Notes: generated by a model from the letters alone, not told the origin. A stretch of 64,000 nucleotides of DNA from an uncultured bacterium (GCA_963720265.1 CAVRET010000001.1:389916-453915); one strand, 5' to 3'; shown: positions 3,694 to 64,000, counted from the first letter of the stretch. Numbers and translations: made by a program.

Positions 3694-3694
3694 G

Positions 3695-40116: not shown

Positions 40117-40728
40117 CTACCGGATGAGGCGCATCTCTACCAGGTCGGTGTCGATGGCCAGGTCGTCGAGAGTGACTGGTATTTCTTCGAAGCGGACGTC
40201 GCAGCGGGTGTTGAGCCACCGCTCGTCGCGCTTGGTGCACTTGTCGTCTGCCTCACATCGCCGGCACCCGTCCTTGCACCTGGCTCGCCTTTCGCGTTCC
40301 GGACAGGACGCGTTGTTGTCGCAATACCGGCACCGGGGGCGCTTATCCGCTGGTATCCGGACGGTGACCAATGCTAGCCTTGTGGGCGGCTTGACCCGAA
40401 ACCGAATCTCGTCGCCAGGCAGCTTCATTGGAAACTGGGGGAACTTGGCCATACGAAGGATGGTTCCCACCAGGACAAGTTCACCCTGTTTAACGCCGGG
40501 CCGGATCTCGTCCAGCTGAACCACTGTTCCACCCGGACCACACTGGATTGGCTGCCCGTCCTCAATGAAGCACCGAAGGTCGGAGTCCAGTGCTTCCGGG
40601 AAGTTCATAAGGATCGCCGGCGGGAGAGCGTCTAGCTCTCCCGAGCCCTCTCGTAGCAAGAGGTCAGCGAGATCCGCAGGATGTTCCGCGAGCCCAAGGT
40701 AGGTATGCGGAAGGTCTACTACAGTCAT
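40117..40728 (-). CDS. hypothetical protein with Cys-rich (CxxC...CxxC) segment
   Basis: 203 aa; CRYCDNNASCPERERRARCKDGCRRCEADDKC cluster; no family recognised. Confidence 0.45.
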   Translation of the reverse strand: MTVVDLPHTYLGLAEHPADLADLLLREGSGELDALPPAILMNFPEALDSDLRCFIEDGQPIQCGPGGTVVQLDEIRPGVKQGELVLVGTILRMAKFPQFPMKLPGDEIRFRVKPPTRLALVTVRIPADKRPRCRYCDNNASCPERERRARCKDGCRRCEADDKCTKRDERWLNTRCDVRFEEIPVTLDDLAIDTDLVEMRLIR

Positions 40729-42875: not shown

Positions 42876-43496
42876 TCACCAAGCAAGACCGAGGCCATGC
42901 AGGTCATGTTTGAGTTGTGTGAGGTTAACGTAGAGAATTGGCCGAATGCCCAGGGCCTCGACACCGATAAAGGCGGCAGCGCGGTCGTCGATATACACCA
43001 ACGAGGTTGGTGGGACACCGAGCCGGTTGGCGATAATAGCAAAGGCACGAGGATCGGGTTTGGCAAAACCGGTTTCTCCCGACAATGCGACGGCATCGAA
43101 GTGCCGGTCGAGACCACGGCGGTAGAGATCGTCTGACCAGGGCGTGGGCACTGCCAGGTTTGACAGCAGACCGGTGCGGTAGCCGGCGGTGCGCAGCTGA
43201 TCGATGAGCCCAAGCATTGGTTCGTTGGGCGTGGGTAAGCGCTCGGTCGCGGTGCGCCAGATGTCGTCGAAACGACCCGACAGCCCAAGGTCCGCGGCTA
43301 CCCGCCGCCAAAGTGTGGCTTGGTCAATGGTGCCAATCTGAAATTCACGATTATGGCGATGATACATGTCCCGCACCGTGTCCGGGTCGGCACCGGTAAG
43401 CCGGCTGATTTGCTCGAAAATATTTCCGGCCGGCGGGTTTGATGTGACGCCGGTGTAGTCGAAAGCGACGGCGCGAACCGGGGCGAGCAACGGCAT
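42876..43496 (-). CDS. HAD-superfamily hydrolase
   Basis: Start MPLLAPVRAVAFDYTGV (DxD-type motif I: AFDYTGV); ...LLSNL... motif II; late DD motif; start ATG 43494-43496. Confidence 0.65.
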   Translation of the reverse strand: MPLLAPVRAVAFDYTGVTSNPPAGNIFEQISRLTGADPDTVRDMYHRHNREFQIGTIDQATLWRRVAADLGLSGRFDDIWRTATERLPTPNEPMLGLIDQLRTAGYRTGLLSNLAVPTPWSDDLYRRGLDRHFDAVALSGETGFAKPDPRAFAIIANRLGVPPTSLVYIDDRAAAFIGVEALGIRPILYVNLTQLKHDLHGLGLAW

Positions 43497-43503
43497 CGCG
43501 ATA

Positions 43504-44784
43504 CTATTTGCCCTCGGCGTAACCAATGAGCTTTGCAATGACCTTGGACGCCAGGAGGTGATTATAGACTTCTTCCCGCGTACGGGGGTTGTCTAGCTCG
43601 GTCTGGGCTTCGGGGTCGGGATAATCCTGGCGCAAACGGTCAATCTCGGCATTTAGCTCAGATGCGGTGACCGTTAAACTTTCGGTCGTAGCGACCTCGG
43701 TGAGCAAGAGCGCCAGCCCAACCCGGCGCTCGGCTTCGGGACGTAAGTCAGCCGCCAGTTCATCGGCTGACTTACCGGTCAGGTGAGCGTATTTTTCGAG
43801 ATTGAGTCCGCTGGTGGCCAGGTTCTGTTCAAGATCAATGCGCAGGCGCTCAAGTTGCTGGCTGATGAGAGTTTCTGGAAGTTTGTAATCCGAATCCTTT
43901 AACAGCTTGTCCAGCACGAGTTTTTCATACTCGCGGCCGGCGGCGGTAGTTTTTTCGCCCTCCAACTTTGCCTTAATGTCCGCCTTAAGCTCGTCTAGTG
44001 AGCCAAAGGGGCTTACCTGGTTCACAAACTCTTGATTTTCTTCCGGCAGTACAAGCTCGGTAATCGAGTTAAGTTTGATTTTAAACCTTACCGACTGATC
44101 GGCCAGCGACTGTTCGTGGTAATCGGCCGGGAAGCGAATCTCAAATGTCTTCTCCGCGCCGGGTTTTAGGCCAACGAGTTCGTCTTCGAAGCCGGGAATG
44201 AACGAGCCGGAGCCAAGCGCTAGCGTTTGGTTTTTGGCGGCGGCGCCGGACACAGGCTTGCCGTCTTTGGTGCCTTCAAAGTCGAAATTTACTTCGTCGC
44301 CGATTTTGGCTGGACGCTCGACTTGCAAGCGCGAAGCCACGCGCCTGCGCAGGTCCTGAATTGTGGCTTCTACTTCGGCGGGCTCAACTTTGACTGGCGG
44401 CCGTTTGATCCGAAACTTTTGGTAGTCAGCCAGCTTCACCTTGGGAATAAGCTCCACTTCGATGCGATATTGCAGCTCGGTATAGGGCACGAATTTTTCC
44501 AGGGTGACCTTGGGCGAACCCACCACCGGTAGCTCCAGTTCTTTTACGGCTTTGGCGTAGGTCCGCTCGAGCGCGTGTTCGACAAACTCAGATTGTACCG
44601 TGGCTGATCCGAGCTCACGGTCGACGATGGCGTCTGGGGCACGGCCGGGCCGGAATCCGGCGGCTTTCACGCGGCCGCGCAAGTGGCCGTAAACATCGGC
44701 CTTGATGCGGCGCAGCTCGGTTTCGTCGAGCGTAACACTAAATTGAACCTCGGTGTCGTGTCGGGATATGAGCTTGGTTTCCAT
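43504..44784 (-). CDS. tig: trigger factor
   Basis: Start METKLISRHDTEV at 44784; N-terminal ribosome-binding domain GFRPGRAPDAIVDREL; PPIase and C-terminal domains; a HAD gene lies between tig and clpP. Confidence 0.88.
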   Translation of the reverse strand: METKLISRHDTEVQFSVTLDETELRRIKADVYGHLRGRVKAAGFRPGRAPDAIVDRELGSATVQSEFVEHALERTYAKAVKELELPVVGSPKVTLEKFVPYTELQYRIEVELIPKVKLADYQKFRIKRPPVKVEPAEVEATIQDLRRRVASRLQVERPAKIGDEVNFDFEGTKDGKPVSGAAAKNQTLALGSGSFIPGFEDELVGLKPGAEKTFEIRFPADYHEQSLADQSVRFKIKLNSITELVLPEENQEFVNQVSPFGSLDELKADIKAKLEGEKTTAAGREYEKLVLDKLLKDSDYKLPETLISQQLERLRIDLEQNLATSGLNLEKYAHLTGKSADELAADLRPEAERRVGLALLLTEVATTESLTVTASELNAEIDRLRQDYPDPEAQTELDNPRTREEVYNHLLASKVIAKLIGYAEGK

Positions 44785-44867
44785 AGTGTCTAAGGGTACC
44801 ACGAAGCGGAGTCGCGAAAAAGAGGCAAAGCGGTTATGATGTGGGAAGTAAGTGAGAGAAACGTGTT

Positions 44868-46142
44868 GTGAGGGTTGAAAAAAGCCGTAGTTCGCTGCTC
44901 GCTGTGTCGTCACCGATTCAGGCTGTGGCGCTGTGTGTCATGGTACTGGGCGCGGTAGGTTTGGGATATGCCGTGGTGCATACGTTTGCCGCCAGCCGCT
45001 TCATTGCAACGCTGTCGCTGTCGCCCTCGACCGGAGCGTATCAGTCTAGTAAGCCCGGCCAGAACGTGAGCGTGAAAGTGGAGGCAGACTCCGACGGCGC
45101 GCTGGTGAACGCGGTGGAGGCAGATGTTTCATACCCTTCAAGCTTGCTCAAATTTGTCAGCATCGACGATACCGGGTCGGCTTTTGGTGTTAAGGCGTCT
45201 GAAACCGGCGGTAACGGCACGGTTAAGATTTCGCGTGGTAGTCAGACGCCGATCTCGGGCACAGCAATGTTGGTTGCAACCATAAACTTTACGACTGCGG
45301 CCAGTGGCACGGCCAACTTGGATTTCCTGAACTCATCGGCACTGGTGAGTAGTGCGACTCATACGAGCATTTTGACCTCGACGACCGGTGCAGTGTATAC
45401 GATTAGCATTACCGGCAGTACGTCGTCTCCAACGCCCACGCCCCGTCCTACGGCCACACCAACGCCAATTCAGTCGGCCACACCAACACCGTCGGCCGCC
45501 ACGCAGCCTACGCCGTCGACGAGTCCACTGGCTGGTGCGGGCACTCCTAGTGCTTCCCCAACGCCGAGCGAGAGCCCATCGCCAAGCGTGAGCCCGACGC
45601 CGGCCGGTACTGTTACAGCTGAGGCTTCTCCCACACCGACCATGCAACCAGTTACGCACCACACTGATGTGCTCGGAGTGGCAACCGCGATTGGCATTCC
45701 GGTACTGGCCATCATTATCGGCTTGGTAATCTTCCTGGCGTCCAAGAATCATACGCCCGGCGCGGGCAGTGGTGGCTCGGCTGAACCCCCAACTCCGGGT
45801 ACTCCTCAGGCTCCGGTGGCTGACGGTGGTGCGCCAACACCGGCCGAACCTGTAGCACCGCAGCCGCCGACTGACGACGATAATGAGCCACCGGCACCGC
45901 CGGCAGGCCCCGATGATGATAGCCAAGTGCCGCCGCCCGAGGCTAACGTGCCGGACCAAGCGCCCAACGAGGCTCCGACGGTAGGTGATGATGGCTCGTT
46001 AAACCCACCTACCGAGACACCTGATGAACCAATCCAACCGACCGAGCCATCGGCACCGTCGCAGACGGATGCGCCAATTTCCGGTAACAATGACCGACCA
46101 CCGAGCGAGACTCAGCCACCGACACCGCCCAACTCAGCTTAG
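44868..46142 (+). CDS. surface protein with cohesin-like domain, TM anchor and Pro-rich C-terminal tail (GTG start)
   Basis: 424 aa; N-terminal signal/TM; a roughly 120-aa block VSVKVEADSDGALVNAVEADVSYPSSLLKFVSIDD...GNGTVKISRG...ATINFT, cohesin-like; PT-rich linker; TM helix IGIPVLAIIIGLVIFLA; then a Pro/Asp-rich tail. Confidence 0.7.
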   Translation: MRVEKSRSSLLAVSSPIQAVALCVMVLGAVGLGYAVVHTFAASRFIATLSLSPSTGAYQSSKPGQNVSVKVEADSDGALVNAVEADVSYPSSLLKFVSIDDTGSAFGVKASETGGNGTVKISRGSQTPISGTAMLVATINFTTAASGTANLDFLNSSALVSSATHTSILTSTTGAVYTISITGSTSSPTPTPRPTATPTPIQSATPTPSAATQPTPSTSPLAGAGTPSASPTPSESPSPSVSPTPAGTVTAEASPTPTMQPVTHHTDVLGVATAIGIPVLAIIIGLVIFLASKNHTPGAGSGGSAEPPTPGTPQAPVADGGAPTPAEPVAPQPPTDDDNEPPAPPAGPDDDSQVPPPEANVPDQAPNEAPTVGDDGSLNPPTETPDEPIQPTEPSAPSQTDAPISGNNDRPPSETQPPTPPNSA

Positions 46143-46176
46143 CGCTAGCTAGCTTCTTGTAGTCGATGAGACGATT

Positions 46177-46203
46177 AGACCCCAGGCAATTGGCCTGGGG
46201 TCT
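46177..46203. terminator. bidirectional hairpin terminator between convergent surface-protein genes
   Basis: AGACCCCAGGC aattg GCCTGGGGTCT, 11-bp perfect stem, followed by TTTTGG on the plus strand. Confidence 0.55.
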
Positions 46204-46227
46204 AATCCGTTTTGGTAGAGAACTTGG

Positions 46228-48375
46228 CTATTTGCCAGAGCCGTCATCCTGGGAGACCCCAGCAGGAACGGCACCGAATCCCCACAGCTGGCTTTGATCG
46301 CCCTGGCATGGCTCCAGCTGCAGCAATGTGCCAGGATCCAAGCTATTGTCAACCGTGGTAACGCATTCGCTCGTGTCGCCGTTGTACGCCAATTCACCGC
46401 TGCTGGTGATCTGGTAGAGACCGTCCCCGTTGAGTGCCGCCGAGCAGGCCTCCAGCACTGAACGACTGGGAGTTCCATTATCGGCGTCGGATGGGGTTTG
46501 AGCGAGACAGTTTGAACCTCCGTTGAGTTTGAAGGCGTATGCGACAACCGGGTTGGCGGCGGTACCGGCATTGGTGCTTACGCTTGTTTCCGTCCAGGCT
46601 TGAGCGCTACTATTCGGCGTGCACGTGTTTACATGTACAACACTCCCGGTGGTGTCGAGGCAGAGATTGTCTGCCCCCATGATTTGCTTCGTCCCGGCGG
46701 CCGCGCCGCTACTGCCACTCCCGCCGGTGCCGGCTGTGGTGCCGGCGTTTGTGGTGAATGTCCATTTTTGGGCATTGGTGCCGTTGCAGGTGTAGATCCA
46801 CAGCTGCGTACCATCGGTTTTCGTTGAGTGCGGGTCGTCGAGACAGAGGTTTGTGCCCGTTACCTTTAGAGTGCTGTTGGTGTAAGTCCAGAGCTGGTTG
46901 GCGTAGCTGTTTGTCTTGCACGGGTAAAGGTCGACCGGCTGCTGCGACTTGAGGGTAGCGTGGTATACATCCAAGCACTCGCCGTCATGCGTAACGCGTC
47001 CGCTCCCGATGCTCCACAACTGGGCGGCGGTGTTGTTGCAGGTATAGATATCAACTTTGTTAGCTGGTTTGCCGGCAGCGGGCACATTGTTTTTGAAATC
47101 ATCCAAGCACTTGCCGGCGATTCCGGAGTCCACGACGTAGGTGGAGTTGGCAATATTGACCGTACCGGAACCGGAACCAGAGCCGGAACTCGACCCACTC
47201 CCGCCGGATCCAGAGCTGCTACCTGTAAACACTGTGGTGTACCACCGCTGGTTAGCCGCGCCGCCCGCAACACACGACTGGATTACCAGCTGGGTACCGT
47301 TGGCGCTGCTTGGCGCAGTCAGGCATTTCCCGGATTGTTTGCCAACGTAGGTCTCGGTTGCGCCGTTATATGTCCATTGCTGGTTGGTACCGTTGTTGCA
47401 GGTAAAGAGCTCAACCTTTGAACCGTCTTTAGTACCTTGCTGGAAGACGTCAAGGCATAGTCCGCCATGCGTGATGGTGCTGTTCGAGTTGACGGCCCAC
47501 TTTTGAGCGGCCGTGCCATTGCAATTGTAGAGATCGACTACTGCGCGGATGTTTGGGCTGTCTTTAAGGTCATCAAGACACATGCCGCTAATTCCTGATG
47601 CTACTTCGGCTGTGGTATTGGCAACCGCGCCACTGCCCGAACCCGAACCGCTGCCTGAGCCCGAACCACTACCGCTTCCAGAACCGGAGCCGCTACCTGA
47701 ACCACTGCCGCTGCTCACATCCGTGGGTGGGTAGTCGTTAAAGTGCCAGACCTCACTAGCGTAGTTGTCGCTGCAGGCCACTACCTCCAGTTGTGAACCA
47801 TCGGTCGATCCTGAAGTTCCAAGACACAACGGTACGGAGCTGTTATAGACTAAGTCACTAATTAAGTGGCCGTTAGGGTCTTGCGTCCAGACTTGGTTGC
47901 CGGTTGTGTCATTCTTGCATGGATAGAGATCGACTGGGGTGCCCGGGGTCGTTTTGTTCTGGTAGACATCAAGGCATTGATTGCCGTGAATCTTGACATA
48001 TTGACCGCTAATGGTCCATTGTTGCGCTGCTGAACCGTTGCACTTGAATAAGTCGACTTTGGTGGCCGGACCCTTGGCATTGTAAAGGTCCTTATAATCG
48101 TCAAGGCACATGCCCTTGTAACCACCGTTTTCAACTTCAGGTGTGGCAGTCGCAGCCAAACTGTGCGCGAGCAGCACATAGCCGCCGATTACTACGAATG
48201 CCGCCACGACAATGGCGGTTCGGCTGCCAAACGGGCTACGCCGGCCAAGAAGTGCGCCGCCTTTCTTTTTCTTCTTTGAGGACGATTTTACGAGCCGCGA
48301 CCAGAGTGATTTGCTGGACTTACTGCTGGTTTTACGCGGCTTTTTGGTTGATTTGGGTTTTGATGTGGTCGCCAT
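46228..48375 (-). CDS. membrane-anchored protein with four ricin-B (beta-trefoil) lectin domains separated by (SG)n linkers
   Basis: 715 aa; Lys-rich N-terminus plus TM; repeated CLD...QxW/QLW beta-trefoil signatures (QQWTISGQ, QKWAV, QRWYT, QLWS, QKWTF, QAWTE); (SG)13 and mixed S/G linkers. Confidence 0.8.
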   Translation of the reverse strand: MATTSKPKSTKKPRKTSSKSSKSLWSRLVKSSSKKKKKGGALLGRRSPFGSRTAIVVAAFVVIGGYVLLAHSLAATATPEVENGGYKGMCLDDYKDLYNAKGPATKVDLFKCNGSAAQQWTISGQYVKIHGNQCLDVYQNKTTPGTPVDLYPCKNDTTGNQVWTQDPNGHLISDLVYNSSVPLCLGTSGSTDGSQLEVVACSDNYASEVWHFNDYPPTDVSSGSGSGSGSGSGSGSGSGSGSGSGSGSGAVANTTAEVASGISGMCLDDLKDSPNIRAVVDLYNCNGTAAQKWAVNSNSTITHGGLCLDVFQQGTKDGSKVELFTCNNGTNQQWTYNGATETYVGKQSGKCLTAPSSANGTQLVIQSCVAGGAANQRWYTTVFTGSSSGSGGSGSSSGSGSGSGTVNIANSTYVVDSGIAGKCLDDFKNNVPAAGKPANKVDIYTCNNTAAQLWSIGSGRVTHDGECLDVYHATLKSQQPVDLYPCKTNSYANQLWTYTNSTLKVTGTNLCLDDPHSTKTDGTQLWIYTCNGTNAQKWTFTTNAGTTAGTGGSGSSGAAAGTKQIMGADNLCLDTTGSVVHVNTCTPNSSAQAWTETSVSTNAGTAANPVVAYAFKLNGGSNCLAQTPSDADNGTPSRSVLEACSAALNGDGLYQITSSGELAYNGDTSECVTTVDNSLDPGTLLQLEPCQGDQSQLWGFGAVPAGVSQDDGSGK
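47626..47706 (-). repeat. coding microsatellite encoding an (SG)13 linker inside the lectin gene
   Basis: Tandem GA(A/G)CC(G/A)-type hexamer repeats on the plus strand; a second shorter S/G block lies near 47141-47230. Confidence 0.7.
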
Positions 48376-48463
48376 ATGTTTAGCAAGGCCTTTGTTAAGC
48401 GCTTATGCTTAGCATGGTAGCGTAGTCATGGCCGGTCGTCAAATCTGCTGTCTGGGGCGGCGC

Positions 48464-48841
48464 TTACTTAAACGAATCGATGATCTCAAGCAGGTCGGAG
48501 AGCGTGATTTCAGCTTTTACAACATAGCCGTCCATGTCGCGGTTAACCTCCGGTGTAACCTTGGACGGGTCGCCGAGGTTGGTGAGGATGACAATGCGCG
48601 TTTTGGTACAACCATACTGGGGGTCATGACGGAGCTCTTTGAGTACTTGGAAACCGTCTTTTTTGGGCATCATAACGTCTAAGAAAATAAGGTCCGGCTG
48701 ATACGATTTGGCGACCGCAAGTCCCTCTTCCCCATCGCCTGCCACTCCGACCTGATAGCCGTGAGACTTTAGGTACAATTCATAGAGATTGCGTAGCTCA
48801 ATATTGTCCTCAACGAGTAGTATTTTTCGTAATCCAGCCAC
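48464..48841 (-). CDS. stand-alone response regulator receiver domain (CheY-like)
   Basis: 125 aa; LLVEDN...D..MP..DG..KELR receiver motifs; no output domain. Confidence 0.85.
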   Translation of the reverse strand: MAGLRKILLVEDNIELRNLYELYLKSHGYQVGVAGDGEEGLAVAKSYQPDLIFLDVMMPKKDGFQVLKELRHDPQYGCTKTRIVILTNLGDPSKVTPEVNRDMDGYVVKAEITLSDLLEIIDSFK

Positions 48842-51002
48842 GACGCCTCCTCACAACGTTACCCTCTGCCTGGTCTGACTGCAGGCCGGCCAGCCGCTCT
48901 TCAGTTAACTTCGGAATGGTGAAAGAAAATGTTGAGCCTTTGCCTTCTTCGGATTCGACCCAAATGGTGCCGTCATGGCGCTCGATAATGGACTTAGCGA
49001 TAAACAGGCCGAGGCCGGTGCCGGTGGATCCTGAGTCGAGGCCGCCGTGCACACGGAAGAACTTGGTGAAAAGGTGGGGCTGGGCGGCTTTGGGGATACC
49101 GACACCGTTGTCCTTGACAGCCACCGTGTAGCGGTCGCCGCTGTCTGTCAGCGAAGCCTCGATGTGGCCGCCGGGCTGTGTGTATTTAACGGCATTGGTA
49201 AGTAGATTGGTGATGACTTCGCGCAGCGCGATTTCGTCAGCCACCACGAAGTTGTCGTGGTCCGGGCCGCCGTAGCTTACGTTCATGTTTCGCTCTTTAG
49301 CCTGGAAGCCGACATCCTTAATGGCCTTGGCCACTGAGGCGGCGAGATCGGTCTTCTCCATATTGAGGGTGAGCGTGCCGCGCTCGATGCGGCTGACGTC
49401 GAGCAAATTATTAATGAGGCTGGAAAGTTCCACCGAGCTTTTGAGTGCCTGGGCCAGATAGTTTGAAATGTCGGGCGGCGCTTTCTTGAGCTTAAAGGTA
49501 ATGAGTTCAATGTAGCCACGGATGGCGGCCAGCGGCGTGCGCAGTTCGTGTGCTGCCATAGATACGAAGTCGAGCTTCATGCTTTCGAACTCACGGCTCT
49601 TGGTTTCGTCACGAATAGTGATGATGGCTTGCCCTGGCTGGAGTTCGGTGCCGGCGAGCCTGGCGACAATAAGCTTGAGGTAATGCCTGGAGCCGGTGGT
49701 GCCGACGTACTCGATGTTGCTGTATGTGTTTGAGCCGGGTGACGCAAAGTCGATGGCAAACGGGGTCTGGTTCGAGGTGAAAGCAAAAATGTCGTGAATG
49801 GAACGGCCGATAATAGCCGAGGCCGGTTTGCCGGCGAGCTCGAGTGCGGCGCGGTTGGCGGTCGTAATTGTGCCGTCCTGGAGCACGGCCAGAATGGAGT
49901 CCGTGGTGGTGTCAAGAATGATGGCAAGGTGATTGCGTTGCGACTCGATGCCGGTCACAAAAGCTTTGAGGCTCTCACGCATCGTGTTGATGCTACTCGC
50001 AAGCACTCCAATTTCATCGCCGCTCGTCACCTCCACCGGCACACTGAAGTCGCCCATACCGATGCGTTTTGATGCTTCAGCAATACGCAAGATTGGGTTG
50101 GTGAATAGGCGGGCTAGATACCAAGCCAGACACATAATTGCCAGGGTACTGAGGATTAAGATCACGATGAGCGCGTTGCGCAGAGCGGCGATTGGCGCCA
50201 GAGCTTCACCGGTTTCAATCATGGTACCAATGGTCCAGTCGGAAAACCCTATTGGCCGGCTCGACACCATGACCGGGTGTCCGGTGTAATTTACGTCCTG
50301 CCCGCGGACAACCGAGTATGGCACAATGTCGCTGGCTGATGTGTTAAAGCGCAGGGGAAACAGTGACACTTGCCTGCCGTCGCTGCCGGGGGCTGTGATG
50401 ACCGTTTCACCAGTGCTACCAAGACCGGTATAGTCGCCTAGCTCTGCTACGAGGTCGTTTACGCTATATACGGCTCGTAGAATGGCCTGATACTGGTCGT
50501 TAATACTTAAGCTTGTGGTGATGTAGAGCTCCTGAAGTCCTGACGATGGGTCAGCCACAACGGCGATATCGGGCCCTTGGTACGTGGCGCTGGCAGACGG
50601 TTTGTTCGGCAATTCTTGGCCGCTTTGACCTGATTCAGTAGAAGCGATGATCGTGCCGCCCTGGTTCGCAACGTGGATATATTGTAGTCCCGAAACTTCT
50701 GACAACCGGCTGTTTAAAATACCGACCACGGCATTTTGGCTGGCCGCTGTGGGCGAGGTTAAGAGCTGTTGGAGTGCTACCTGGAAATCATATTCCTCAG
50801 CCAGCTTGATGACTTCCTGCTGCTTGGCTTGCAGCAGGGCACTAATAGCCTGTTGTTGCTTAATGTCGATGCTGGCAAGTTGGCTTTGAGTGCGCTGGTT
50901 GAGCTGGGTTGAGATAGTGAAAAAGGATACAAGGCTGACGACCAGAGTCGGCACCAGGCCAATGCTTAAGAGAGCGGTAATGAACTTCTGCTGAATATTC
51001 AT
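48810..51002 (-). CDS. sensor histidine kinase (extracytoplasmic sensor domain, HAMP, PAS, HisKA, HATPase_c)
   Basis: 730 aa; two TM helices flank a roughly 250-aa periplasmic domain; H-box SMAAHELRTPLAAIRGY; N, G1 (DNGVGIP) and G2 (GTGLGL) boxes. Confidence 0.9.
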   Translation of the reverse strand: MNIQQKFITALLSIGLVPTLVVSLVSFFTISTQLNQRTQSQLASIDIKQQQAISALLQAKQQEVIKLAEEYDFQVALQQLLTSPTAASQNAVVGILNSRLSEVSGLQYIHVANQGGTIIASTESGQSGQELPNKPSASATYQGPDIAVVADPSSGLQELYITTSLSINDQYQAILRAVYSVNDLVAELGDYTGLGSTGETVITAPGSDGRQVSLFPLRFNTSASDIVPYSVVRGQDVNYTGHPVMVSSRPIGFSDWTIGTMIETGEALAPIAALRNALIVILILSTLAIMCLAWYLARLFTNPILRIAEASKRIGMGDFSVPVEVTSGDEIGVLASSINTMRESLKAFVTGIESQRNHLAIILDTTTDSILAVLQDGTITTANRAALELAGKPASAIIGRSIHDIFAFTSNQTPFAIDFASPGSNTYSNIEYVGTTGSRHYLKLIVARLAGTELQPGQAIITIRDETKSREFESMKLDFVSMAAHELRTPLAAIRGYIELITFKLKKAPPDISNYLAQALKSSVELSSLINNLLDVSRIERGTLTLNMEKTDLAASVAKAIKDVGFQAKERNMNVSYGGPDHDNFVVADEIALREVITNLLTNAVKYTQPGGHIEASLTDSGDRYTVAVKDNGVGIPKAAQPHLFTKFFRVHGGLDSGSTGTGLGLFIAKSIIERHDGTIWVESEEGKGSTFSFTIPKLTEERLAGLQSDQAEGNVVRRRRGWITKNTTR

Positions 51003-52472
51003 TTATTGTGCACTTACAAACGATCCGTCCTTGACTTGCAATAAGGCGTACTGGTAGTTGGTGCCGTCTTCGTCGCCGTTCGCGTCAAACTTAATGTGAG
51101 CCGATACCCCATTGAACGAAATGCTTGGTAGTTTGGACTTGATTTCCGGCCCGGTGGTGGCGCCGTCCTTAACTGCCAGATATAGCGTTTCAAAGGCATC
51201 GTAGCCTTCGGCTGCGGCATACAGTTGCTCTCCTTGATCGTTGGTGTAGAGCAGCTGCTTAAAGGCAGCGGTGCCGGTGGGGAAGGTCGTGAGCGTGAGG
51301 CCCTGAGCGGCAGACTGAGCGCTTGAAATCAGAGTTTGGTCATAGAGGCCGTCACCGCCGAAGAACGGCGCGGTGATGCCGGCGTTCCGGGCGAGCTGAA
51401 TGGCGGCCGCGCCGGTTGTAACTGAGTTTGAAACAAACACTACGCCTTGCGGCTTGGCGGCTTTGATGGCAGCAATTTGTGTTGCCAGGTTGATCACTCC
51501 GGATGGCGCATTAACCGAGGTGAGCACTTTACCGCCTAACGATTGAAACTCCTTGGTGAAGACCGAGTTCATGTTAATGCCGTAGGGCTCGTTGGTGTAG
51601 AAAATGCCGACGGTCTTGACGCCCCGCGCGTAGACGGCCTTGGCAAGATAGGCGCCCTGGTACGTGTCCGGTGGCACCACGCGGAAGAAATAGTCGTTCG
51701 GGATGCTTAGGGACGGGCTGGAGGCCGACGGTGAAAGCATGGGGATTTTGTTGGCATTGGCAAGCGGGAGTGCCGCCGTAGAAGCGCTTGAGCAGCCGTC
51801 ACCAATGACCGCCACTACGTGTTGATTAACAAGGCGCTGCATGGCTTGCGGAGCAACTGTGGGGTCGCACTGTGAGTCCATTTGTACGAGCTCGATGTTG
51901 TCGGCACCGAGTTGCTTTTGGGCGAGCTGAATGCCTTTCATCTCGCCATAGCCCATGCTGCTGGAACCACCGGTAAAGGCCATCATAACGCCGATTTTAA
52001 CCGACGGCAGCACCGCGGCAGGCTTATTTTTGGTCGAAAGATAGGCAAAGGCGGCAAATCCGATGGCAGCTATAACCGCAACAACAACGACCGCGGTAAC
52101 AATGGCCTTTACCGAGAGACCCGGCTTGGCCGACGGAGCGCCCGGCGCTGCCGGAACCGGAGCTTGCGGCGAGACCGTCGGTGCGTCTACCGGAGCCTGT
52201 GCCGGGGATGGCTCCTGCGCGGGACTTGCCGGCGGGGGAGGTGGCATGGGGGCGGGATCAGACGGTGACGGTGCAGGCGTGGATGCGGACTCGGCCGGCG
52301 GGGGAGGTGGTGTTGAGTCGCCTGCGGGTGCCGGGTCCGGAGTCGTCGGCGTGGACGTAGGCCCGTCACTTGACGGAGCCGGCGGATTAATTGGGGCAGC
52401 TGCGGAAGATTCCGGCTGACTCGTAGATGGTTGATCTGGCGTTGAATCAGCCTTTGGTGCAGATGAATCCAT
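51003..52472 (-). CDS. periplasmic binding protein, LivK/branched-chain amino-acid type (Peripla_BP_6), with Pro-rich N-terminal region and TM anchor
   Basis: 489 aa; Pro/Ala/Ser low-complexity N-terminus; TM helix; type I PBP fold motifs (VVAVIGDGCSSASTAALPLANANKIPMLSP). Confidence 0.75.
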   Translation of the reverse strand: MDSSAPKADSTPDQPSTSQPESSAAAPINPPAPSSDGPTSTPTTPDPAPAGDSTPPPPPAESASTPAPSPSDPAPMPPPPPASPAQEPSPAQAPVDAPTVSPQAPVPAAPGAPSAKPGLSVKAIVTAVVVVAVIAAIGFAAFAYLSTKNKPAAVLPSVKIGVMMAFTGGSSSMGYGEMKGIQLAQKQLGADNIELVQMDSQCDPTVAPQAMQRLVNQHVVAVIGDGCSSASTAALPLANANKIPMLSPSASSPSLSIPNDYFFRVVPPDTYQGAYLAKAVYARGVKTVGIFYTNEPYGINMNSVFTKEFQSLGGKVLTSVNAPSGVINLATQIAAIKAAKPQGVVFVSNSVTTGAAAIQLARNAGITAPFFGGDGLYDQTLISSAQSAAQGLTLTTFPTGTAAFKQLLYTNDQGEQLYAAAEGYDAFETLYLAVKDGATTGPEIKSKLPSISFNGVSAHIKFDANGDEDGTNYQYALLQVKDGSFVSAQ

Positions 52473-52627
52473 AATGCCTATGCTTTTAATTATGTGGTTA
52501 TCTTAGGAAAAATGACGGTGCGGTGTCAAATGGTTGGCTGCGCTTTTTATGGTTTTGCGATATAGTAGGCCGTGCGTCGTTTGTAGTACCGATTCAGATC
52601 TAGGCGATCCGAGAACAGGAGAGTGCG

Positions 52628-53284
52628 GTGGAAGATATCCCCCCGAGTGGGGTGGCCGAACGGCTCAAGGCGCTGCCTAAGATAACTGCGTATACGCCGG
52701 TGGATTCTAGCACAATGGGGCCGGGTACAGCGGAGCTTTTGATGATGCCGCCAAACCTCAAGCGGGCACTCCTCATGCGATCCGAGCGCCCGAGCTTGCC
52801 GCAGCGGCCGGGGCGTGAAGCCGTTACGTGGTGGGGCGTTCAGGCGCCACTGCTGGCTCACGCGTGCGGTATTGTGTGCGAAACGGCGATTGTTCTCGAG
52901 GGCAGAGGACTGGGCTGGTGCGGGCAGCCCGACTGTCAGCTCGACGAACGTGACCTCTATCCGGTGGCGGCAGTCGCGTTCTACCAGGGACCGCCCGTAG
53001 CGGAGCTCAGAAATCGGGGCATCGATGAAGCAGCGGGGTTCTCGGTGCTCGTGAGATACGGCAAGGCAGGGCCGCGCGGTACCCACTATGTGGTTACCCA
53101 CTGCTCTCCCTTCGCGGTTAGCTACGGCTACTGCAATACGGGAGAAATCCGTGCGCTGTTCGCGGATGCCGAAGGGGTTGATTCATTTCCGAGATGGGCA
53201 TGGACTCACCCCGAGGAGTCGGAGCGGGTGGCCATGGTTACGGCGACACTGCTATTGCGGGAACTGGCCCGCCACATTCAGTGA
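52628..53284 (+). CDS. hypothetical protein (GTG start with AGGAG RBS)
   Basis: 218-aa ORF; AGGAG sits 6 nt upstream of GTG 52628; the overlapping minus-strand ORF is Arg-rich antisense-type junk. Confidence 0.45.
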   Translation: MEDIPPSGVAERLKALPKITAYTPVDSSTMGPGTAELLMMPPNLKRALLMRSERPSLPQRPGREAVTWWGVQAPLLAHACGIVCETAIVLEGRGLGWCGQPDCQLDERDLYPVAAVAFYQGPPVAELRNRGIDEAAGFSVLVRYGKAGPRGTHYVVTHCSPFAVSYGYCNTGEIRALFADAEGVDSFPRWAWTHPEESERVAMVTATLLLRELARHIQ

Positions 53285-53355
53285 TCAAGCTTTACGGCGA
53301 AGGAGGTGCGCCGATGGTCATCCTCCAGGGCCGTCTAGATACTCTAGGCGGTCTT

Positions 53356-53916
53356 TTACAAATATGCGGCCGCTGTGATCAGGACTAGGCCAAAGGCAAC
53401 ACCCGCAACTTGCTGGGCTGCAAACAATACGTGCAAACCGCCCAGATTCAGTGCGAGCAGGCTGGCGCCGACGATTTGCATGACCAGTAACAAGTACATG
53501 AGGCGGTCATGGCGGATTTTTGCCACCAAGTAGATACCAAGTAACAGTTCAAAGCTGACCAGGATCATAAATGTGCGCGCATGGACTTCATTCCAAAAAT
53601 GGTTGACGAGGTAGGGATAGGTGCTCATGAGGACGCAACCCAGGAGGAAAGCGAGTATGTACAGACTTATCCTTACCACATTTACCGGTTTTGGCTGATG
53701 CGGCAAAAGCTTAGCGGCGTAAGCGGTAAGTAGCGCACTTAGCACAAATGCCAGTGTATAGGGTACAACGGTCAGCGGCCGGGTGCCGTAGTTGGACACC
53801 CCGCCTTCGGTTAACACATAATGCGGGATCAGGGCGTAGCATATGACTAGGAAACTAAGCAGACTCGCCTGCCCATAGGCTAGTTTTTGCTGGATGGGGT
53901 TACGGCGCACGGACAT
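53356..53916 (-). CDS. polytopic membrane protein, hypothetical
   Basis: 186 aa; 5-6 hydrophobic helices. Confidence 0.55.
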   Translation of the reverse strand: MSVRRNPIQQKLAYGQASLLSFLVICYALIPHYVLTEGGVSNYGTRPLTVVPYTLAFVLSALLTAYAAKLLPHQPKPVNVVRISLYILAFLLGCVLMSTYPYLVNHFWNEVHARTFMILVSFELLLGIYLVAKIRHDRLMYLLLVMQIVGASLLALNLGGLHVLFAAQQVAGVAFGLVLITAAAYL

Positions 53917-53960
53917 GACGACACCTCTTGTTGTGCGAGATCATTTGTTATCGATGACGG

Positions 53961-54227
53961 CTACCGCTCGAGGTTATGCAGCTCCACTTTTGCCTGTTCG
54001 AGTACCGCCCGATGCTCATCGCTGAGGTTCTTTCCGGCCCGGTTAACATAAAAGTTCAACATGGACATGGCAGATTGGCCCACCGTCCCTTTGCGGCGCC
54101 GACTCCGCTGGGCCGACCGGAGAAGAGATTCTGCGATTTTTTTGGGGTTGTCCCAGGTAAACACTCCCGGCTCTAAGTCGAGGGCGTTACTGTGCTTGAT
54201 AACCTCGCCTGACCATTTCTCGCTCAT
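53961..54227 (-). CDS. DUF3175 family protein
   Basis: 88 aa; KHSNALDLEPGVFTWDNPKKIAESLLRSA pattern. Confidence 0.55.
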   Translation of the reverse strand: MSEKWSGEVIKHSNALDLEPGVFTWDNPKKIAESLLRSAQRSRRRKGTVGQSAMSMLNFYVNRAGKNLSDEHRAVLEQAKVELHNLER

Positions 54228-54566: not shown

Positions 54567-55421
54567 CTATGTGGAGCCTTCTTGATTGTTGCGGTTGCGT
54601 GCTTTCTTGGCGGCCCGACTACCCCTAATCCTGGCCCACAATTTGCCCGCACCAGCAGCCGCATCGGCGGCCACATCGGCGCCCAGCAACGCTCCCGGGG
54701 CGGATATAGAAGAATCCGGCACATCGCCGAGACCTTGCCCTGCTTGCGAGGCGGCTCTCGAAAAACGGCGTCCGCCGCGCTCAGCGTTCGCGGCAGCCTG
54801 CGCAATATCTGGATTGGTTTCTCGCCCGTATTCTTCGATATCGGCACGGGCCAGAGCAGATCTTTGTTCACTATCCAGGCGGTTTAACGCCTCAGCCGCC
54901 GCTTGGCGGCGGGCACGGACTTGTTGCGGGGTCTCCATGGCACTGCCCTGGGGTGTCTCGAGTTGGCGCGGTGCCGGGTCCATATCGGCCATTGCCGTGG
55001 CTATCTGCTCGCGGAAATGAGCTTCCACGTCCGTGTAACGCTTGGCTGACGCCGGATCCATATTAGCTAGTTTTTCGGCTCGCTCCTGAGCTGCACGTTC
55101 AGCATCGCGGGCGCTCGATTCCAATTGGTAGTCCATGAAATCGCCGGGTAGAGTCGGATCTCGTGGCAACCCAAGCTCCTGAGCCCGTTTCGCGGTTAAG
55201 TGGCGCTCGCCGGATTGGTGGAGCTCCGCCAGTCCAGCACGGAGGGGATCGGCAGCTTCGGCCATATCCCTGGCAGTGCTGGGGTCGGTTACGACACCCT
55301 CTTGCGCTACTTTGTTAGTCGCGGCGTATTCGGACGCCATGCCTGCAAGTTCTTCGGCAGAATGGAACTGTGCTGGCTGATCAGTCTCAGTCGACTGGGG
55401 GCCAGATTCGCGATTGCTCAT
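54567..55421 (-). CDS. hypothetical charged, low-complexity protein
   Basis: 284-aa ORF; Ala/Glu/Arg-rich; GC about 62%. Confidence 0.4.
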   Translation of the reverse strand: MSNRESGPQSTETDQPAQFHSAEELAGMASEYAATNKVAQEGVVTDPSTARDMAEAADPLRAGLAELHQSGERHLTAKRAQELGLPRDPTLPGDFMDYQLESSARDAERAAQERAEKLANMDPASAKRYTDVEAHFREQIATAMADMDPAPRQLETPQGSAMETPQQVRARRQAAAEALNRLDSEQRSALARADIEEYGRETNPDIAQAAANAERGGRRFSRAASQAGQGLGDVPDSSISAPGALLGADVAADAAAGAGKLWARIRGSRAAKKARNRNNQEGST

Positions 55422-55931: not shown

Positions 55932-56432
55932 TTAAAAGTTGTTTACAACGGTCCGTGCAATTTGTTCTTCAGTCGGCTGAGAAGGGTTACCGTTTTGGTC
56001 AGACTCACTTATGGTGGCCACGTCATCTCCCTCCACGAATGACAGCTGCCCCTTTCCATAAAAAGCTGTGTCACCTATTCCAGATATGGGTACGTTAGGC
56101 TGAAAGTATGACTTTAATCCGTCAAACTGATTCTGTGGATCCGAATACTTATCCACTTGGACCAGGATGTTGGCGACTTCGCCGGCAGAATAAGTACATG
56201 AACTTGTAGTTGAAGCAGAGGCCGTAGCTGAAGATCCCAAGATAGCCTGGACGTCTGTCAGGGTGAAAAGCTGGCAGGCAGTTTTTGCAGTCGTTATCGA
56301 AGCCGATCCCGATGCCGTTGCGGAGCTACTGTTGGTAGTCGTTCCCGAGGACGTAGATGAAGTTTCGCTACTGGGACTACTTAGACAAAAAGTGTTAGGT
56401 CTACTGGGGCTTAATATAAATCGCGATGACAA
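55932..56432 (-). CDS. secreted Ser/Thr-rich protein, possible lipoprotein
   Basis: 166 aa; hydrophobic N-terminus ending in Cys; long S/T-rich linker; two further Cys. Confidence 0.45.
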   Translation of the reverse strand: MSSRFILSPSRPNTFCLSSPSSETSSTSSGTTTNSSSATASGSASITTAKTACQLFTLTDVQAILGSSATASASTTSSCTYSAGEVANILVQVDKYSDPQNQFDGLKSYFQPNVPISGIGDTAFYGKGQLSFVEGDDVATISESDQNGNPSQPTEEQIARTVVNNF

Positions 56433-56466
56433 CCTTTTGACATTTATACAATAAAGTGTCCAAAGA

Positions 56467-56766
56467 TTACCCTAGTAATGCTGCTACGCCGTGCTCGTGG
56501 ACGATATTCAACAACTTTAGGGCCGCCCCGTCTGGGTGTGTTTTCCCACTCTCCCACTTTTGAGCCGTTGTAACGCCGACGTTCAGCACCTTAGCCCAAA
56601 CACTCCGGCTAAGCTTTAGCTCTTCGCGTAGCTGCCTAATTTGCCCAGGGGTTAGCTCCCGAACGGTTGGTAAAGCCAGCGCTTCAAGCTTGTCCATGGT
56701 AATTTTATCTACCTTGGCATCGTTTGCCGCTTCAAGTACCACTTCCATGACAGTCTTGCCGTCCAT
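56467..56766 (-). CDS. higA: HigA-type antitoxin (XRE-family HTH DNA-binding protein)
   Basis: 99 aa; HTH LTPGQIRQLREELKLSRSVWAKVLNVGVTTAQKWESG; lies immediately downstream of the toxin gene (toxin-first order typical of higBA). Confidence 0.75.
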   Translation of the reverse strand: MDGKTVMEVVLEAANDAKVDKITMDKLEALALPTVRELTPGQIRQLREELKLSRSVWAKVLNVGVTTAQKWESGKTHPDGAALKLLNIVHEHGVAALLG

Positions 56767-56769
56767 TGT

Positions 56770-57150
56770 CTATTCCTTTCCTTTCGTTATCTCTACAATT
56801 GCCTTCGTTTCAAGACGAGGGGTTAAGTCAGCATCGCTTAAATTAAGATAGAATTTCCCAAGCTCCTTTAGTGCAGTTTTCTCTCTTTGGGTAATGTTGT
56901 CGCGATCACTTTTCTCAAATGCGTAGAGGAAGAAAGTTCTCCTGTGGGCTGAGTAAGCGAGTAACGTTCTTACGCTTCCGCTCTTACCTCTACCTTTCGT
57001 TGCTATGCGCTTCTTGAAAAGGTTCCCGCCTAAGTTTGCTTCGACGTTGCCCTTCTCGATGTCATTAACCGCTTCGCACAATAGCCCATCAGTTAATTCA
57101 TTGCTTTGGGCCCAGCTATAAAAACGTTTGATCGCGAATACTCTCATCAT
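56770..57150 (-). CDS. higB: HigB-type RelE/ParE-superfamily mRNA interferase toxin
   Basis: 126 aa; KRIATKGRGKSGSVRTLLAY...FFLYAFEKSDRDNITQREKTALKEL typical of the HigB/YgjN family. Confidence 0.75.
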   Translation of the reverse strand: MMRVFAIKRFYSWAQSNELTDGLLCEAVNDIEKGNVEANLGGNLFKKRIATKGRGKSGSVRTLLAYSAHRRTFFLYAFEKSDRDNITQREKTALKELGKFYLNLSDADLTPRLETKAIVEITKGKE

Positions 57151-57414
57151 TGCCCGCTCTATCCTTAGATACTATATCCTTTAAGGCTATATGTCAAGAG
57201 ATGCGCAGAATAACTGTATGCGTAGCAGACCTTTGCATCCTCACAAAAATACCGCCTCTGACGTGCGGTGTTTTTGTGGGAAGCACTATACTTATTTGGA
57301 TAACTCATTTGGTGCCCTTGAACGACATTCATTTGAACTCTTTTTGCAATGGTTGGATGCTTTTCGTCAAGGTTTTGAGGGGGAATCGCGATGACTGGCA
57401 ATTTGACTTATTTT

Positions 57415-57632
57415 TCAGAAAGTGTCCAAGGATTTTATGCCCAATGCGTCCTTTATGTTTTCCAACTTCTCAAACGAAGGGTTTTCCTCCCCTCTTTCGA
57501 TGCGGGCATAGTAGTTGCTATTAACCCCCGCCTTGGCCGCAACTTCCGACTGTGTCAGGCCGGCCTGTTCGCGGCTTTTTTAAGCTTTTCGCCAAGCTCT
57601 TTGCGCCTATTTTCTTGATCTTTGGTAGCCAT
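57415..57632 (-). pseudogene. XRE-family HTH regulator with a single-base frameshift (near 57560-57575)
   Basis: Manual minus-strand translation: MATKDQENRRKELGEKLKKAANRPA*; the next frame continues GLTQSEVAAKAGVNSNYYARIERGEENPSFEKLENIKDALGIKSLDTF*. 218 nt = 72 codons + 2. Could be a sequencing error. Confidence 0.45.
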
Positions 57633-57729
57633 ATATGGATAACTATACCATTTAGCCCAGGTTCTCATCATTCGTAGGCGGTATCGTCGTCAATCCGGTG
57701 GGGATGTTTGGACGATTATCGGATTATTT

Positions 57730-58228
57730 GTGCTGGGCGCTATTTATCATAAAGGATACATGCACCCGCTTGAAGAGTGGATACTTTTGGCGCTAGGTGC
57801 AGTCGCGACAGTGTCAGTTAGTGTTGTCTTTGCGTGGTTATTGCAAAAGATTCGAAATCAACGCGCACACTCTCAGTATGCCGACGGCTTGGCCTTTGAA
57901 AAATACATATGCTATTCTTCCCCGTCTCGGATTTACTGGCGTAAAGCTAACCGAGCGCTACGATTTGGGCGTCGACATTATTGCACAGAAGGACAGTGTT
58001 GTTTGGGGCATACAAGTTAAACATTATCAGGGGTTAGTTAGGGCTTCTGCTGTGCGGCAAGTGGTTACGGCGTTGCGGACGTACGGATGCGATCGCGTCA
58101 TGGTGGTAACTAGCGGTAGGTTTAGCCGTCCTGCGATTCAGCTTGCCTCAAGCAATAGATGTGTTTTAGTTAGCGGTCACGAGCTGGCCCGGTGGATTTC
58201 AACGTCGCGCACAAAAGCTAAACGATAG
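57730..58228 (+). pseudogene. Mrr-like type IV restriction endonuclease (N-terminal TM + Mrr_cat domain), frame broken near 57905-57925
   Basis: Frame 1: MLGAIYHKGYMHPLEEWILLALGAVATVSVSVVFAWLL...ADGLAFEKYI. Frame 3 continues ...AILPRLGFTGVKLTERYDLGVDIIAQKDSVVWGIQVKHYQGLVRASAVRQVV...VMVVTSGRFS (Mrr catalytic core D..(x)n..VK). 499 nt = 166 codons + 1; the break is in or near a C4 run. Confidence 0.5.
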
Positions 58229-58250
58229 CTATCGAAGGTTATTGTAGGTG

Positions 58251-59198: not shown

Positions 59199-59451
59199 AT
59201 GGCTGGGCTGGCTTGCACTCTCTAAGGCGAAGGATTGTTTATTTTACTCTTTTGCGAGCAAGTTTTACCAGCTCTGCGTCGCGTTCGTAAGCACGCAGCC
59301 GACCGCTCAGGTAACCGAGACGATGATGAATTCCGTCGCTCATCAGTCGCCAGTTAGTGTCAGCTAGGGCCTCCTCGACCATCTTCTTGAGTACATTTCG
59401 GCTATCATGGCCGCTACTGCCGTCCGCCCGGAGTGACAGCTACAATGGGGA

Positions 59452-61660: not shown

Positions 61661-61866
61661 AGCATCCCTCCAGTGTTATCTACAATATAGCATAACCGAA
61701 TGAAAGCCGTACTACAATAGAATAAAGACGAGCCTTTCGGCCCGTTAAGCGATAGCCAAAATAGATTGATAACTTCTGGTACCTGCAAGTACTAAAAAAT
61801 TCCACCTCACAGCGGCCATCACCCTAGTTATAGTGTCTTCCCGATTTAATCACAAGCATTATGGTG

Positions 61867-63876: not shown

Positions 63877-64000
63877 GTAGCTCGCTTTAGATTGATTGTA
63901 TGGTATCTGTTCGCATTTGCAAGATGTCAGGGGCTTGTCTCTCCCCTCTCTTCCCATGGTAAGGGCAGCACGTGATGCGTCAAGGTCGTTCCAACCAGGT

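Follow-up and report, generated by a model that had tools for sequence, protein, structure and literature searches.

A four-domain ricin-B lectin and a predicted, divergent cohesin-type membrane protein in a variable region of a genome assigned to Saccharimonadia

The DNA analyzed here, a window of 64,000 nucleotides (nt) from an uncultured bacterium (GCA_963720265.1, CAVRET010000001.1:389916-453915), contains two large open reading frames (ORFs) that converge on a gap of 85 nt: one of 424 amino acids (aa) with a GTG start on the plus strand (44868-46142), and one of 715 aa with an ATG start on the minus strand (46228-48375). An earlier note on this DNA had described them as a convergent pair of large surface proteins, an anchored cohesin-like protein and a four-domain lectin, and both ORFs and their layout are as noted there. 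The 715-aa protein is a true four-domain lectin of the ricin-B/CBM13 type, and the 424-aa protein is predicted to be a divergent cohesin. The reading that we favour, with somewhat more confidence than doubt, is that of two independent envelope proteins, a multivalent glycan binder and a dock for dockerins, encoded in a variable region of the genome. The domain identities of both proteins are near certain, and for their functions the balance is roughly even; we infer sugar binding, dockerin binding, export topology and a role in host attachment from the features described below.

The lectin gene, with an architecture common to five family members (P0001-P0005), comprises the following parts:

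46228..48375, minus strand: gene of the 715-aa four-domain ricin-B (CBM13-type) lectin (ORF; PF00652)
48226..48375, minus strand: Lys/Ser/Arg-rich N-terminal region, aa 1-50 (17 Lys or Arg of 50; predicted local distance difference test, pLDDT, ~30, disordered)
48151..48222, minus strand: hydrophobic segment ending HSLA/A, aa 52-75 (hydropathy; signal-anchor or cleavable signal peptide)
47734..48138, minus strand: ricin-B domain 1, aa 80-214 (PF00652, 64.8 bits; pLDDT 72-88)
47629..47715, minus strand: linker 1, S(SG)14, aa 221-249 (mixed codons; disordered in the model)
47233..47610, minus strand: ricin-B domain 2, aa 256-381 (PF00652, 92.3 bits)
47164..47223, minus strand: linker 2, mixed S/G, aa 385-404 (composition; model)
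46750..47142, minus strand: ricin-B domain 3, aa 412-542 (PF00652, 84.5 bits)
46705..46725, minus strand: linker 3, S/G core GGSGSSG in a T/A/G-rich linker, aa 551-557 (sequence)
46270..46689, minus strand: ricin-B domain 4, aa 563-702 (PF00652, 40.9 bits; pLDDT 62-81)

The full-length protein matches the Pfam family Ricin_B_lectin (PF00652) with 226.7 bits (E 8.9e-68), and each of the four units, scanned alone with the scores given above, exceeds the curated cutoff of this family (29 bits). The 24 Cys residues fall in 12 regularly spaced pairs, ten of them followed by a QxW motif, which is missing in the gamma subsite of domain 1 and the beta subsite of domain 4. An Asp at the first Cys+2, an aromatic residue two positions before the second Cys and the QxW motif served as a proxy for a sugar site, positions that, by comparison with ricin and CBM13 structures, we take to be those of the sugar-site residues in the lectin. 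This triad is kept in seven of the 12 subsites: alpha and beta remain intact in domain 1, where gamma is degenerate, and in domain 2, and all three are intact in domain 3.

The AlphaFold (AF2) model of the lectin, built with five family members, consists of four beta-rich modules with disordered linkers between them. Foldseek superposes one module on the CBM13 of Streptomyces lividans (1knm) with a template modelling score of 0.90, a root mean square deviation of 1.4 A and 34% identity, and many B chains of ricin, abrin and mistletoe match at probability 1.00. The best match of the whole chain is a mosquitocidal toxin (2vse; E 7e-19, ~680 aligned columns), the MTX holotoxin, which also carries four ricin-type domains. 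By sequence, the nearest solved relatives in the PDB are the actinobacterial CBM13s 3wmy (the best match of domain 2), 1knl and 1isv, with a best E of 3e-21, followed by the B chains of plant ricin, abrin and ebulin. Domain search and fold agree, then, on the four beta-trefoil units with Cys pairs and QxW motifs proposed in the earlier note.

The lectin shares its beta-trefoil, made of three Cys-pair/QxW subdomains, with the CBM13s of S. lividans Xyn10A (1KNL/1KNM/1MC9), S. olivaceoviridis FXYN (1ISV) and S. avermitilis Araf43A (3WMY). Whereas these Streptomyces enzymes carry one CBM13 on a catalytic domain, the window lectin has four CBM13s and no catalytic domain, starts with a long basic region and a hydrophobic segment, and lies in a Saccharimonadia genome. 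Its multi-trefoil architecture is also that of the MTX holotoxin (2VSE), of the two-domain B chains of ricin, abrin and mistletoe and of botulinum HA33. Unlike these toxins, it has neither an ADP-ribosyltransferase nor the A chain of a ribosome-inactivating protein, and its domains are set apart on long disordered S/G linkers, whereas those of the tandem-ricin toxins are packed together. Pfam detects no catalytic or toxin domain in the lectin, which by present evidence is not a toxin.

Relatives of the lectin above ~46% identity were found neither in the protein database nor in metagenome contigs, a metagenome scan for close relatives or strain variants gave nothing above ~40% identity, and single domains are at most 53% identical to protein domains of Kitasatospora and Streptomyces. 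Among the family members, domain 4 is common only to P0001, which is devoid of domain 2. Recent duplication or recombination within the gene was considered and rejected as unlikely, because the four domains are mutually 42-49% identical and the longest DNA word in common is 13 nt. Composition gives no signal of a recent horizontal transfer either, since the GC content of the gene (0.558) and that of its third codon positions (0.631) match those of its neighbours. As a separate observation, members of the lectin family also occur in arrays, with three adjacent ricin-domain genes in locus L043 (310-5615). L042 (4480-6195) and L043 encode a second family, of ~545-570 aa, in which a hydrophobic segment at the N-terminus and a single ricin domain are combined with ~380 C-terminal residues that have no Pfam match.

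The N-terminus of the lectin had been described as a Lys-rich cytoplasmic region followed by a transmembrane anchor, and this description stands in part. The basic region is present (similar ones occur in P0001-P0004), as is the hydrophobic segment, and in the AF2 model aa 1-53 are disordered, while aa 51-72 form one helix. The supposed anchor, however, may be a cleavable signal peptide, because it ends in a site like those of signal peptidase I (SLA/A, with cleavage after SLA), and all five family members show '...GGYxLLxHSFAA' at the same place, with small residues at -3/-1. Export of both the lectin and the cohesin protein is likely. The lectin would be a Sec-exported 'beads-on-a-string' protein, with four CBM13/ricin-B trefoils on disordered Ser/Gly linkers, and most likely a multivalent binder of polysaccharide or cell-wall glycan through up to ~seven subsites; it would be held on the cell by an uncleaved N-terminal segment, or released after SLA/A cleavage.

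Two further observations concern the ends of these proteins. The hydrophobic segments of the lectin, of the cohesin protein and of their homologues P0001-P0005 and P0121-P0123 end in a motif of the type '[HQG][ST][FL]AA' (HSLAA, HTFAA, HSFAA), located at 48151-48165 in the lectin gene and at 44980-44993 in the cohesin gene, which is probably a signal-peptidase I site and may be an export signal typical of the lineage. Three membrane or exported proteins encoded side by side have long, low-complexity extensions that are presumed cytoplasmic: 50 Lys/Ser-rich residues in the lectin (48226-48375), 129 Pro/Asp-rich residues in the cohesin protein (45753-46139), and ~120 Pro/Ser/Thr/Ala-rich residues before the transmembrane segment of a solute-binding protein encoded nearby (about 52110-52472).

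A lectin that is fully secreted and soluble after cleavage at SLA/A, binding or scavenging environmental polysaccharide or targeting a secreted effector instead of acting as a host adhesin, is a tentative alternative. Such a fate would fit the conserved '...HS[FL]AA' ending, with small -3/-1 residues after a hydrophobic core of ~16 residues, of the window lectin and the five family members, and it would also fit the CBM13s of secreted Streptomyces xylanases and arabinofuranosidases, which are the nearest solved relatives, and the secreted toxin with tandem ricin domains (2vse) that is the best whole-chain match. However, for a cleaved Sec signal the highly basic n-region of 50 residues would be of unusual length, the lectin has no catalytic or toxin domain, and a cell with a reduced genome would have no obvious gain from it unless the lectin were retained.

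The second gene of the pair encodes the cohesin-type membrane protein, with these parts:

44868..46142, plus strand: gene of the 424-aa membrane protein with a single predicted cohesin-fold module (ORF; divergent from tig)
44889..44993, plus strand: N-terminal hydrophobic segment ending HTFAA, aa 8-42 (hydropathy; signal peptide or first transmembrane helix)
45000..45410, plus strand: predicted cohesin-fold beta-sandwich, aa 45-181 (AF2, pLDDT ~88-96; Foldseek)
45423..45662, plus strand: Pro/Thr/Ser-rich stalk, aa 186-265 (21 Pro, 18 Thr and 14 Ser of 80 residues)
45669..45746, plus strand: C-terminal transmembrane helix, aa 268-293 (Kyte-Doolittle 19-residue means up to 2.75)
45753..46139, plus strand: Pro/Asp/Glu-rich low-complexity tail, aa 296-424 (37 Pro, 13 Asp and 9 Glu of 129)

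Composition and hydropathy bear out the PT-rich stalk, the transmembrane anchor and the Pro/Asp-rich tail described before. Its orthologue P0121 has 45% identity at 98% coverage and begins at the corresponding residue, and the transmembrane segment and the overall layout are kept in P0121-P0124. Homologues have PT-rich stretches of varying length at the position of the stalk and share the composition of the tail, but not its sequence. The AF2 model places a helix at residues 16-39, cleavage at HTFAA may take place, judging from the small residues at -3/-1, and the tail is presumed cytoplasmic in the predicted topology.

The cohesin assignment comes from the fold of the N-terminal module and from its relatives. 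In a Foldseek search of the PDB with the AF2 model of aa 1-195, built with seven homologues, all of the top 50 matches are cohesins, with target-normalised template modelling scores up to 0.78; the best one, 6kgf_C, has an E of 6.8e-9 and a score of 0.76. These 50 comprise cohesins of types I, II and III and non-cellulosomal cohesins of archaea and Clostridium perfringens. A phmmer search, run exhaustively with the domain, recovered 2,124 representative clusters at E<=1e-3 (547 at E<=1e-10), and many of these relatives hold two to four copies of the domain per protein. Among 60 sampled relatives, 34 match the Pfam cohesin family PF00963 (best E 5.1e-34) and 14 also bear a Dockerin_1 domain, and PF00963 is likewise matched by three of the eight members of alignment A1. 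A word-index search with the domain alone recovered nothing, not even P0121, and a first search with the full protein gave 10 matches only, apparently because PT-rich words dominated the selection of candidates. On the basis of modelled fold and transitive homology, the 424-aa protein is classed as a divergent member of the cohesin superfamily, so that the label 'cohesin-like' of the earlier note holds for fold and homologues and fails for any direct Pfam or NCBIfam match.

The arrangement of a cohesin on a Pro/Thr-rich linker, attached to the envelope, is that of C. thermocellum OlpA, OlpC and SdbA and of R. flavefaciens ScaE, and the structural matches of the window cohesin include OlpA, OlpC and ScaE, as well as Archaeoglobus fulgidus 2XDH and C. 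perfringens 2JH2. Cohesins outside cellulosomes have been reviewed (Peer et al. 2009, as cited in PMC10066038). Unlike the cellulosomal cohesins, that of the window is too divergent for the Pfam model, and whereas scaffoldins are anchored by S-layer homology (SLH) repeats or an LPXTG sortase signal, the window protein ends in a transmembrane helix and a Pro/Asp-rich tail. Pfam finds no SLH or other anchoring domain in it, and neither dockerins nor glycoside hydrolases are encoded near its gene. Its identification as the anchoring scaffoldin of a cellulosome was rejected on these three grounds (SLH/sortase anchor, dockerins and glycoside hydrolases nearby), and it would work like one at most by analogy. 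It would be a type-I membrane protein, with one divergent non-cellulosomal module raised away from the membrane on its PT-rich stalk, most likely acting as a dock by which secreted proteins with dockerin tags are kept at the cell surface.

A possible case of such a pairing comes from a related Saccharimonadia metagenome-assembled genome (MAG), where two genes occupy the stretch 2373-6973 of locus L002. The first encodes a 1111-aa protein ending 'DLNGDGKVNLSDLAVMA...INLSDLAVMAANWG', a duplicated dockerin-like segment. This gene runs 16 nt into the start of that of a 426-aa cohesin-type paralogue, which has a cohesin-type domain, a PT stalk, a CarboxypepD_reg domain, a transmembrane helix and a Pro-rich tail, and is 29% identical over 194 aa to the window protein. 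The two genes may be a co-operonic dockerin/cohesin pair. In addition, transposon sequencing of Southlakia epibionticum found glycan-binding and dockerin envelope proteins to be essential, with a dockerin-domain protein required for epibiotic growth (Wang et al. 2023, PMC10633639), and the authors speculate that such envelope proteins target host-cell glycans (PMC10633639). That paper never mentions a cohesin (0 occurrences) and reports no ricin-type lectin (PMC10633639). A membrane-anchored cohesin would be a logical counterpart of this essential dockerin protein. The essential proteins SEML1_0315, 0890 and 0891 of S. epibionticum (PMC10633639) come from the same group, Saccharibacteria, as the window genome and, in a comparison by description only, form a set of dockerin, VCBS and fn3 proteins, whereas the window encodes a cohesin and a ricin-type lectin. 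A role for both window proteins in glycan or host-surface interaction is plausible and would fit these data, and that of host attachment is plausible because of the actinobacterial-type CBM13 domains and the transposon-sequencing literature.

Several results weigh against two envelope proteins with these functions. Domain 4 of the lectin is divergent, and in the motif table most of its sugar-site residues are gone. Confidence in the model of the entire lectin is low overall (pLDDT 64, predicted template modelling score 0.29), which is expected because the domains are flexibly linked, and the lectin may be either held on the cell or, to judge from its SLA/A site, released. For the cohesin-like protein, Pfam searches with the full length and the N-terminal half at E<=10 gave only noise (MerF, A2M_BRD), the isolated domain matched PF00963 neither at E<=10 nor at E<=0.1, NCBIfam gave nothing, and the family profile of alignment A1 matched PDB sequences only in the low-complexity PT region, with no cohesin among them. 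As for a partner, the dockerin calcium-loop motif, in strict and loose form, has no credible match in any of the six frames of the window; the sole loose match falls inside a response-regulator gene, while the strict motif recovered the dockerin-like segment of L002 as a positive control. The Dockerin_1 match of that segment, in turn, reaches 18.3 bits, under the Pfam cutoff of 22.9.

It is accordingly conceivable that the cohesin-fold module binds no dockerin and is a generic beta-sandwich adhesin or spacer, for another ligand or for mere projection, an alternative to which we give a minor share of our belief. The missing Pfam match and an identity to solved cohesins of 8-23% speak for it, as do the lack of a dockerin in the window and the many relatives in which the domain stands beside fn3, Big_7 or further Ig-like modules of the kind that adhesins typically have. 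However, the top 50 structural matches contain no other jelly-roll family, dockerins occur on the same chain in the 14 sampled relatives mentioned above, and a dockerin-like gene lies directly upstream of the L002 paralogue.

The independence of the two genes is indicated by their unlinked synteny and by the strong hairpin that separates them. The block rpoBC-MFS-clpP-tig is conserved in L002-L004, and within 10 kb upstream of tig these loci contain no lectin, cohesin or two-component genes. L007, the closest relative found (tig 78% identical), keeps the HAD-tig/cohesin arrangement, and there the convergent neighbour of the cohesin orthologue is a 175-aa Cys-rich protein, not a lectin. This protein was also considered as a cryptic ricin trefoil and rejected (no Pfam match, BLASTP against the lectin E 2.2, no PDB match). 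The lectin family members are flanked by 6PGD, glyoxalase and GT4 genes (L006, L041), ribosomal L10/L12 (L042), other ricin-domain genes (L043) or unannotated genes (L040), and neither a cohesin gene nor a two-component system stands beside any of the five (L006, L040-L043). The lectin and the cohesin protein had been presented as a pair, a claim that is not sustained, as the linkage is absent in L007 and around every lectin member examined; their pairing is not conserved. Between the two genes, the terminator scan of the convergent gap found the following element:

46173..46207, no strand assigned: hairpin with a perfect 15-bp stem

The RNA fold of the hairpin has an energy of -38.6 kcal/mol (z -5.65) for the plus strand and of -33.2 kcal/mol (z -6.09) for the minus strand, with none of 200 shuffles as stable in either case, and the hairpin is likely a bidirectional terminator.

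The Ser/Gly linkers had been described as slippage-prone microsatellites, with a pure (SG)13 tract and mixed S/G linkers. The mixed linkers are present, and so is a pure tract, although it is (SG)14, at aa 222-249, not (SG)13. At the DNA level, every one of the six Ser codons occurs in it, along with three Gly codons; ten of its 14 hexamers are distinct, identical units are adjacent never in the SG frame and once in the GS frame, and perfect 6-nt periodicity extends over at most 14 nt (2.3 units). Tandem Repeats Finder reports only imperfect periods of 18/24 nt with 71-88% matches, and the tract, which as DNA is no microsatellite, does not consist of several perfect tandem DNA units, as simple-sequence contingency loci do. 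Because its codons are so heterogeneous, slippage is not expected, and any change by a hexamer unit would in any case stay in frame. Distant lectin homologues have S/G linkers of varying length and composition, a variation that appears to be on an evolutionary scale and gives no evidence for slippage. The tracts are best seen, from their sequence, as ordinary flexible linkers and not as contingency repeats.

The remaining element of the earlier account is a two-component cluster next to the lectin gene:

48464..52472, minus strand: cluster of solute-binding protein, histidine kinase and response regulator, genes abutting or overlapping (Pfam, ORFs)
51003-52472, minus strand: membrane-anchored Peripla_BP_6 solute-binding protein (Pfam)
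48810-51002, minus strand: sCache/HAMP/PAS/HisKA/HATPase histidine kinase (Pfam)
48464-48841, minus strand: receiver-only response regulator of 125 aa, without output domain (Pfam)
52529-52500, minus strand: promoter-like site 5' of the solute-binding protein gene (10/12)
48414..48442, minus strand: sigma-70-like promoter match TTGACG-17-TACCAT (9/12 of the consensus), in the 88-nt gap between receiver and lectin genes

These genes adjoin the lectin gene on the same strand, as had been stated, but they lie upstream (5') of it and not downstream. No terminator is predicted in the 88-nt gap, so transcripts of the receiver gene may, as judged from sequence, read through into the gene of the lectin; promoter matches of this kind are not more numerous in the region than expected from shuffled sequence. 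With no DNA-binding output in the receiver, nothing indicates that it controls lectin transcription directly, and the cluster offers no regulator with such an output that would make the neighbouring lectin gene its target. Elsewhere, the high-GC locus L008 shows a weak kinase-like match (24% identity) ~1 kb from a ricin match. That the two genes form one adhesion module, with a lectin made length-variable by (SG)n slippage and controlled by the adjacent two-component system, is hardly credible: the genes are adjacent, the lectin shares the strand of the cluster with no terminator predicted in between, and linker lengths vary among distant homologues, but perfect hexamer periodicity does not exceed 14 nt with most of the units distinct, no family member examined has a cohesin or two-component neighbour, the receiver is without output domain, the lectin has a promoter-like site of its own, and a strong hairpin parts the convergent genes.

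The epibiotic or ultra-small bacterium that the earlier note had guessed at is borne out at the level of lineage, because the trigger factor (tig) and rpoB/rpoC resemble those of Saccharimonadia MAGs. The trigger factor encoded beside the cohesin gene is 60-67% identical to those of four Saccharimonadia/Saccharimonadales MAGs, and two large ORFs of the size of rpoB and rpoC are 80-88% identical to L002 and L004, identities that assign the source organism to Saccharimonadia, i.e. Saccharibacteria (TM7). The part of the chromosome with the lectin and cohesin genes is variable; it is bordered by the conserved rpoBC-clpP-tig block on one side and by a low-GC defence island on the other. In this island the GC content falls from ~57% to 46-50% (56000-64000), and its genes, of defence or mobile type, encode a RelE toxin with an HTH/MqsA-like antitoxin, an Mrr-type endonuclease, a Vsr endonuclease, an Eco29kI restriction enzyme with a C5 cytosine methylase, and a 696-aa HATPase_c_3 protein; the island was probably acquired horizontally and bounds the variable region.

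Some other features of the window are worth recording. The ORF listed as trigger factor (43504-44913) has an over-extended N-terminus, hence its apparent overlap with the cohesin gene; homologues align only from residue 42-43 of the listed ORF, which makes 44787 the likely start and leaves a divergent intergenic region of 80 nt. A HAD hydrolase gene (42876-43538) lies between clpP and tig in the window and in L007, and is not present in L002-L004. The ~880 nt 5' of the solute-binding protein gene (52473-53355) hold no convincing gene, only two overlapping ORFs of 218 and 184 aa on opposite strands without Pfam match. Rfam and tRNA scans of the whole window found nothing, and neither did Rfam with permissive filters (E<=1) on 52400-53400; GC skew is locally high (0.136) over 52001-54000. 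Finally, the ORFs 40117-40728 (203 aa), 53356-53916 (186 aa) and 54567-55421 (284 aa) match no Pfam family and lack counterparts in related loci, and the strongly hydrophobic one of 186 aa is likely a multi-pass membrane protein.

A last question is what these genes mean for their host lineage. Cultivated Saccharibacteria live attached to Actinobacteria and, to our knowledge, the molecules that mediate the recognition of their hosts are mostly unknown. The window adds new, fairly divergent members, in an under-studied lineage, to three groups that are already established: ricin-type lectins, tandem ricin arrays and non-cellulosomal cohesins. With slippage, pairing and two-component control unsupported, and with domain families that are common and well described, the finding is a useful annotation and not a surprise. 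Nevertheless, dockerin proteins such as the essential one of S. epibionticum have a concrete candidate for a partner in a membrane-anchored cohesin, and a multivalent lectin of actinobacterial-type CBM13 domains is a concrete candidate for the recognition of host glycans. A bolder proposal, which we rate as unlikely, is that Saccharibacteria possess a minimal system of cohesin-dockerin display, of non-cellulosomal kind, whose missing surface receptor is the cohesin protein, accompanied by a tetra-CBM13 lectin for a glycan on the wall of the actinobacterial host. If so, this system would retain dockerin-tagged adhesins or enzymes, such as the essential dockerin protein of S. epibionticum, at the interface between epibiont and host, and host range would be set by a variable repertoire for attachment to which both the lectin and the cohesin protein belong.

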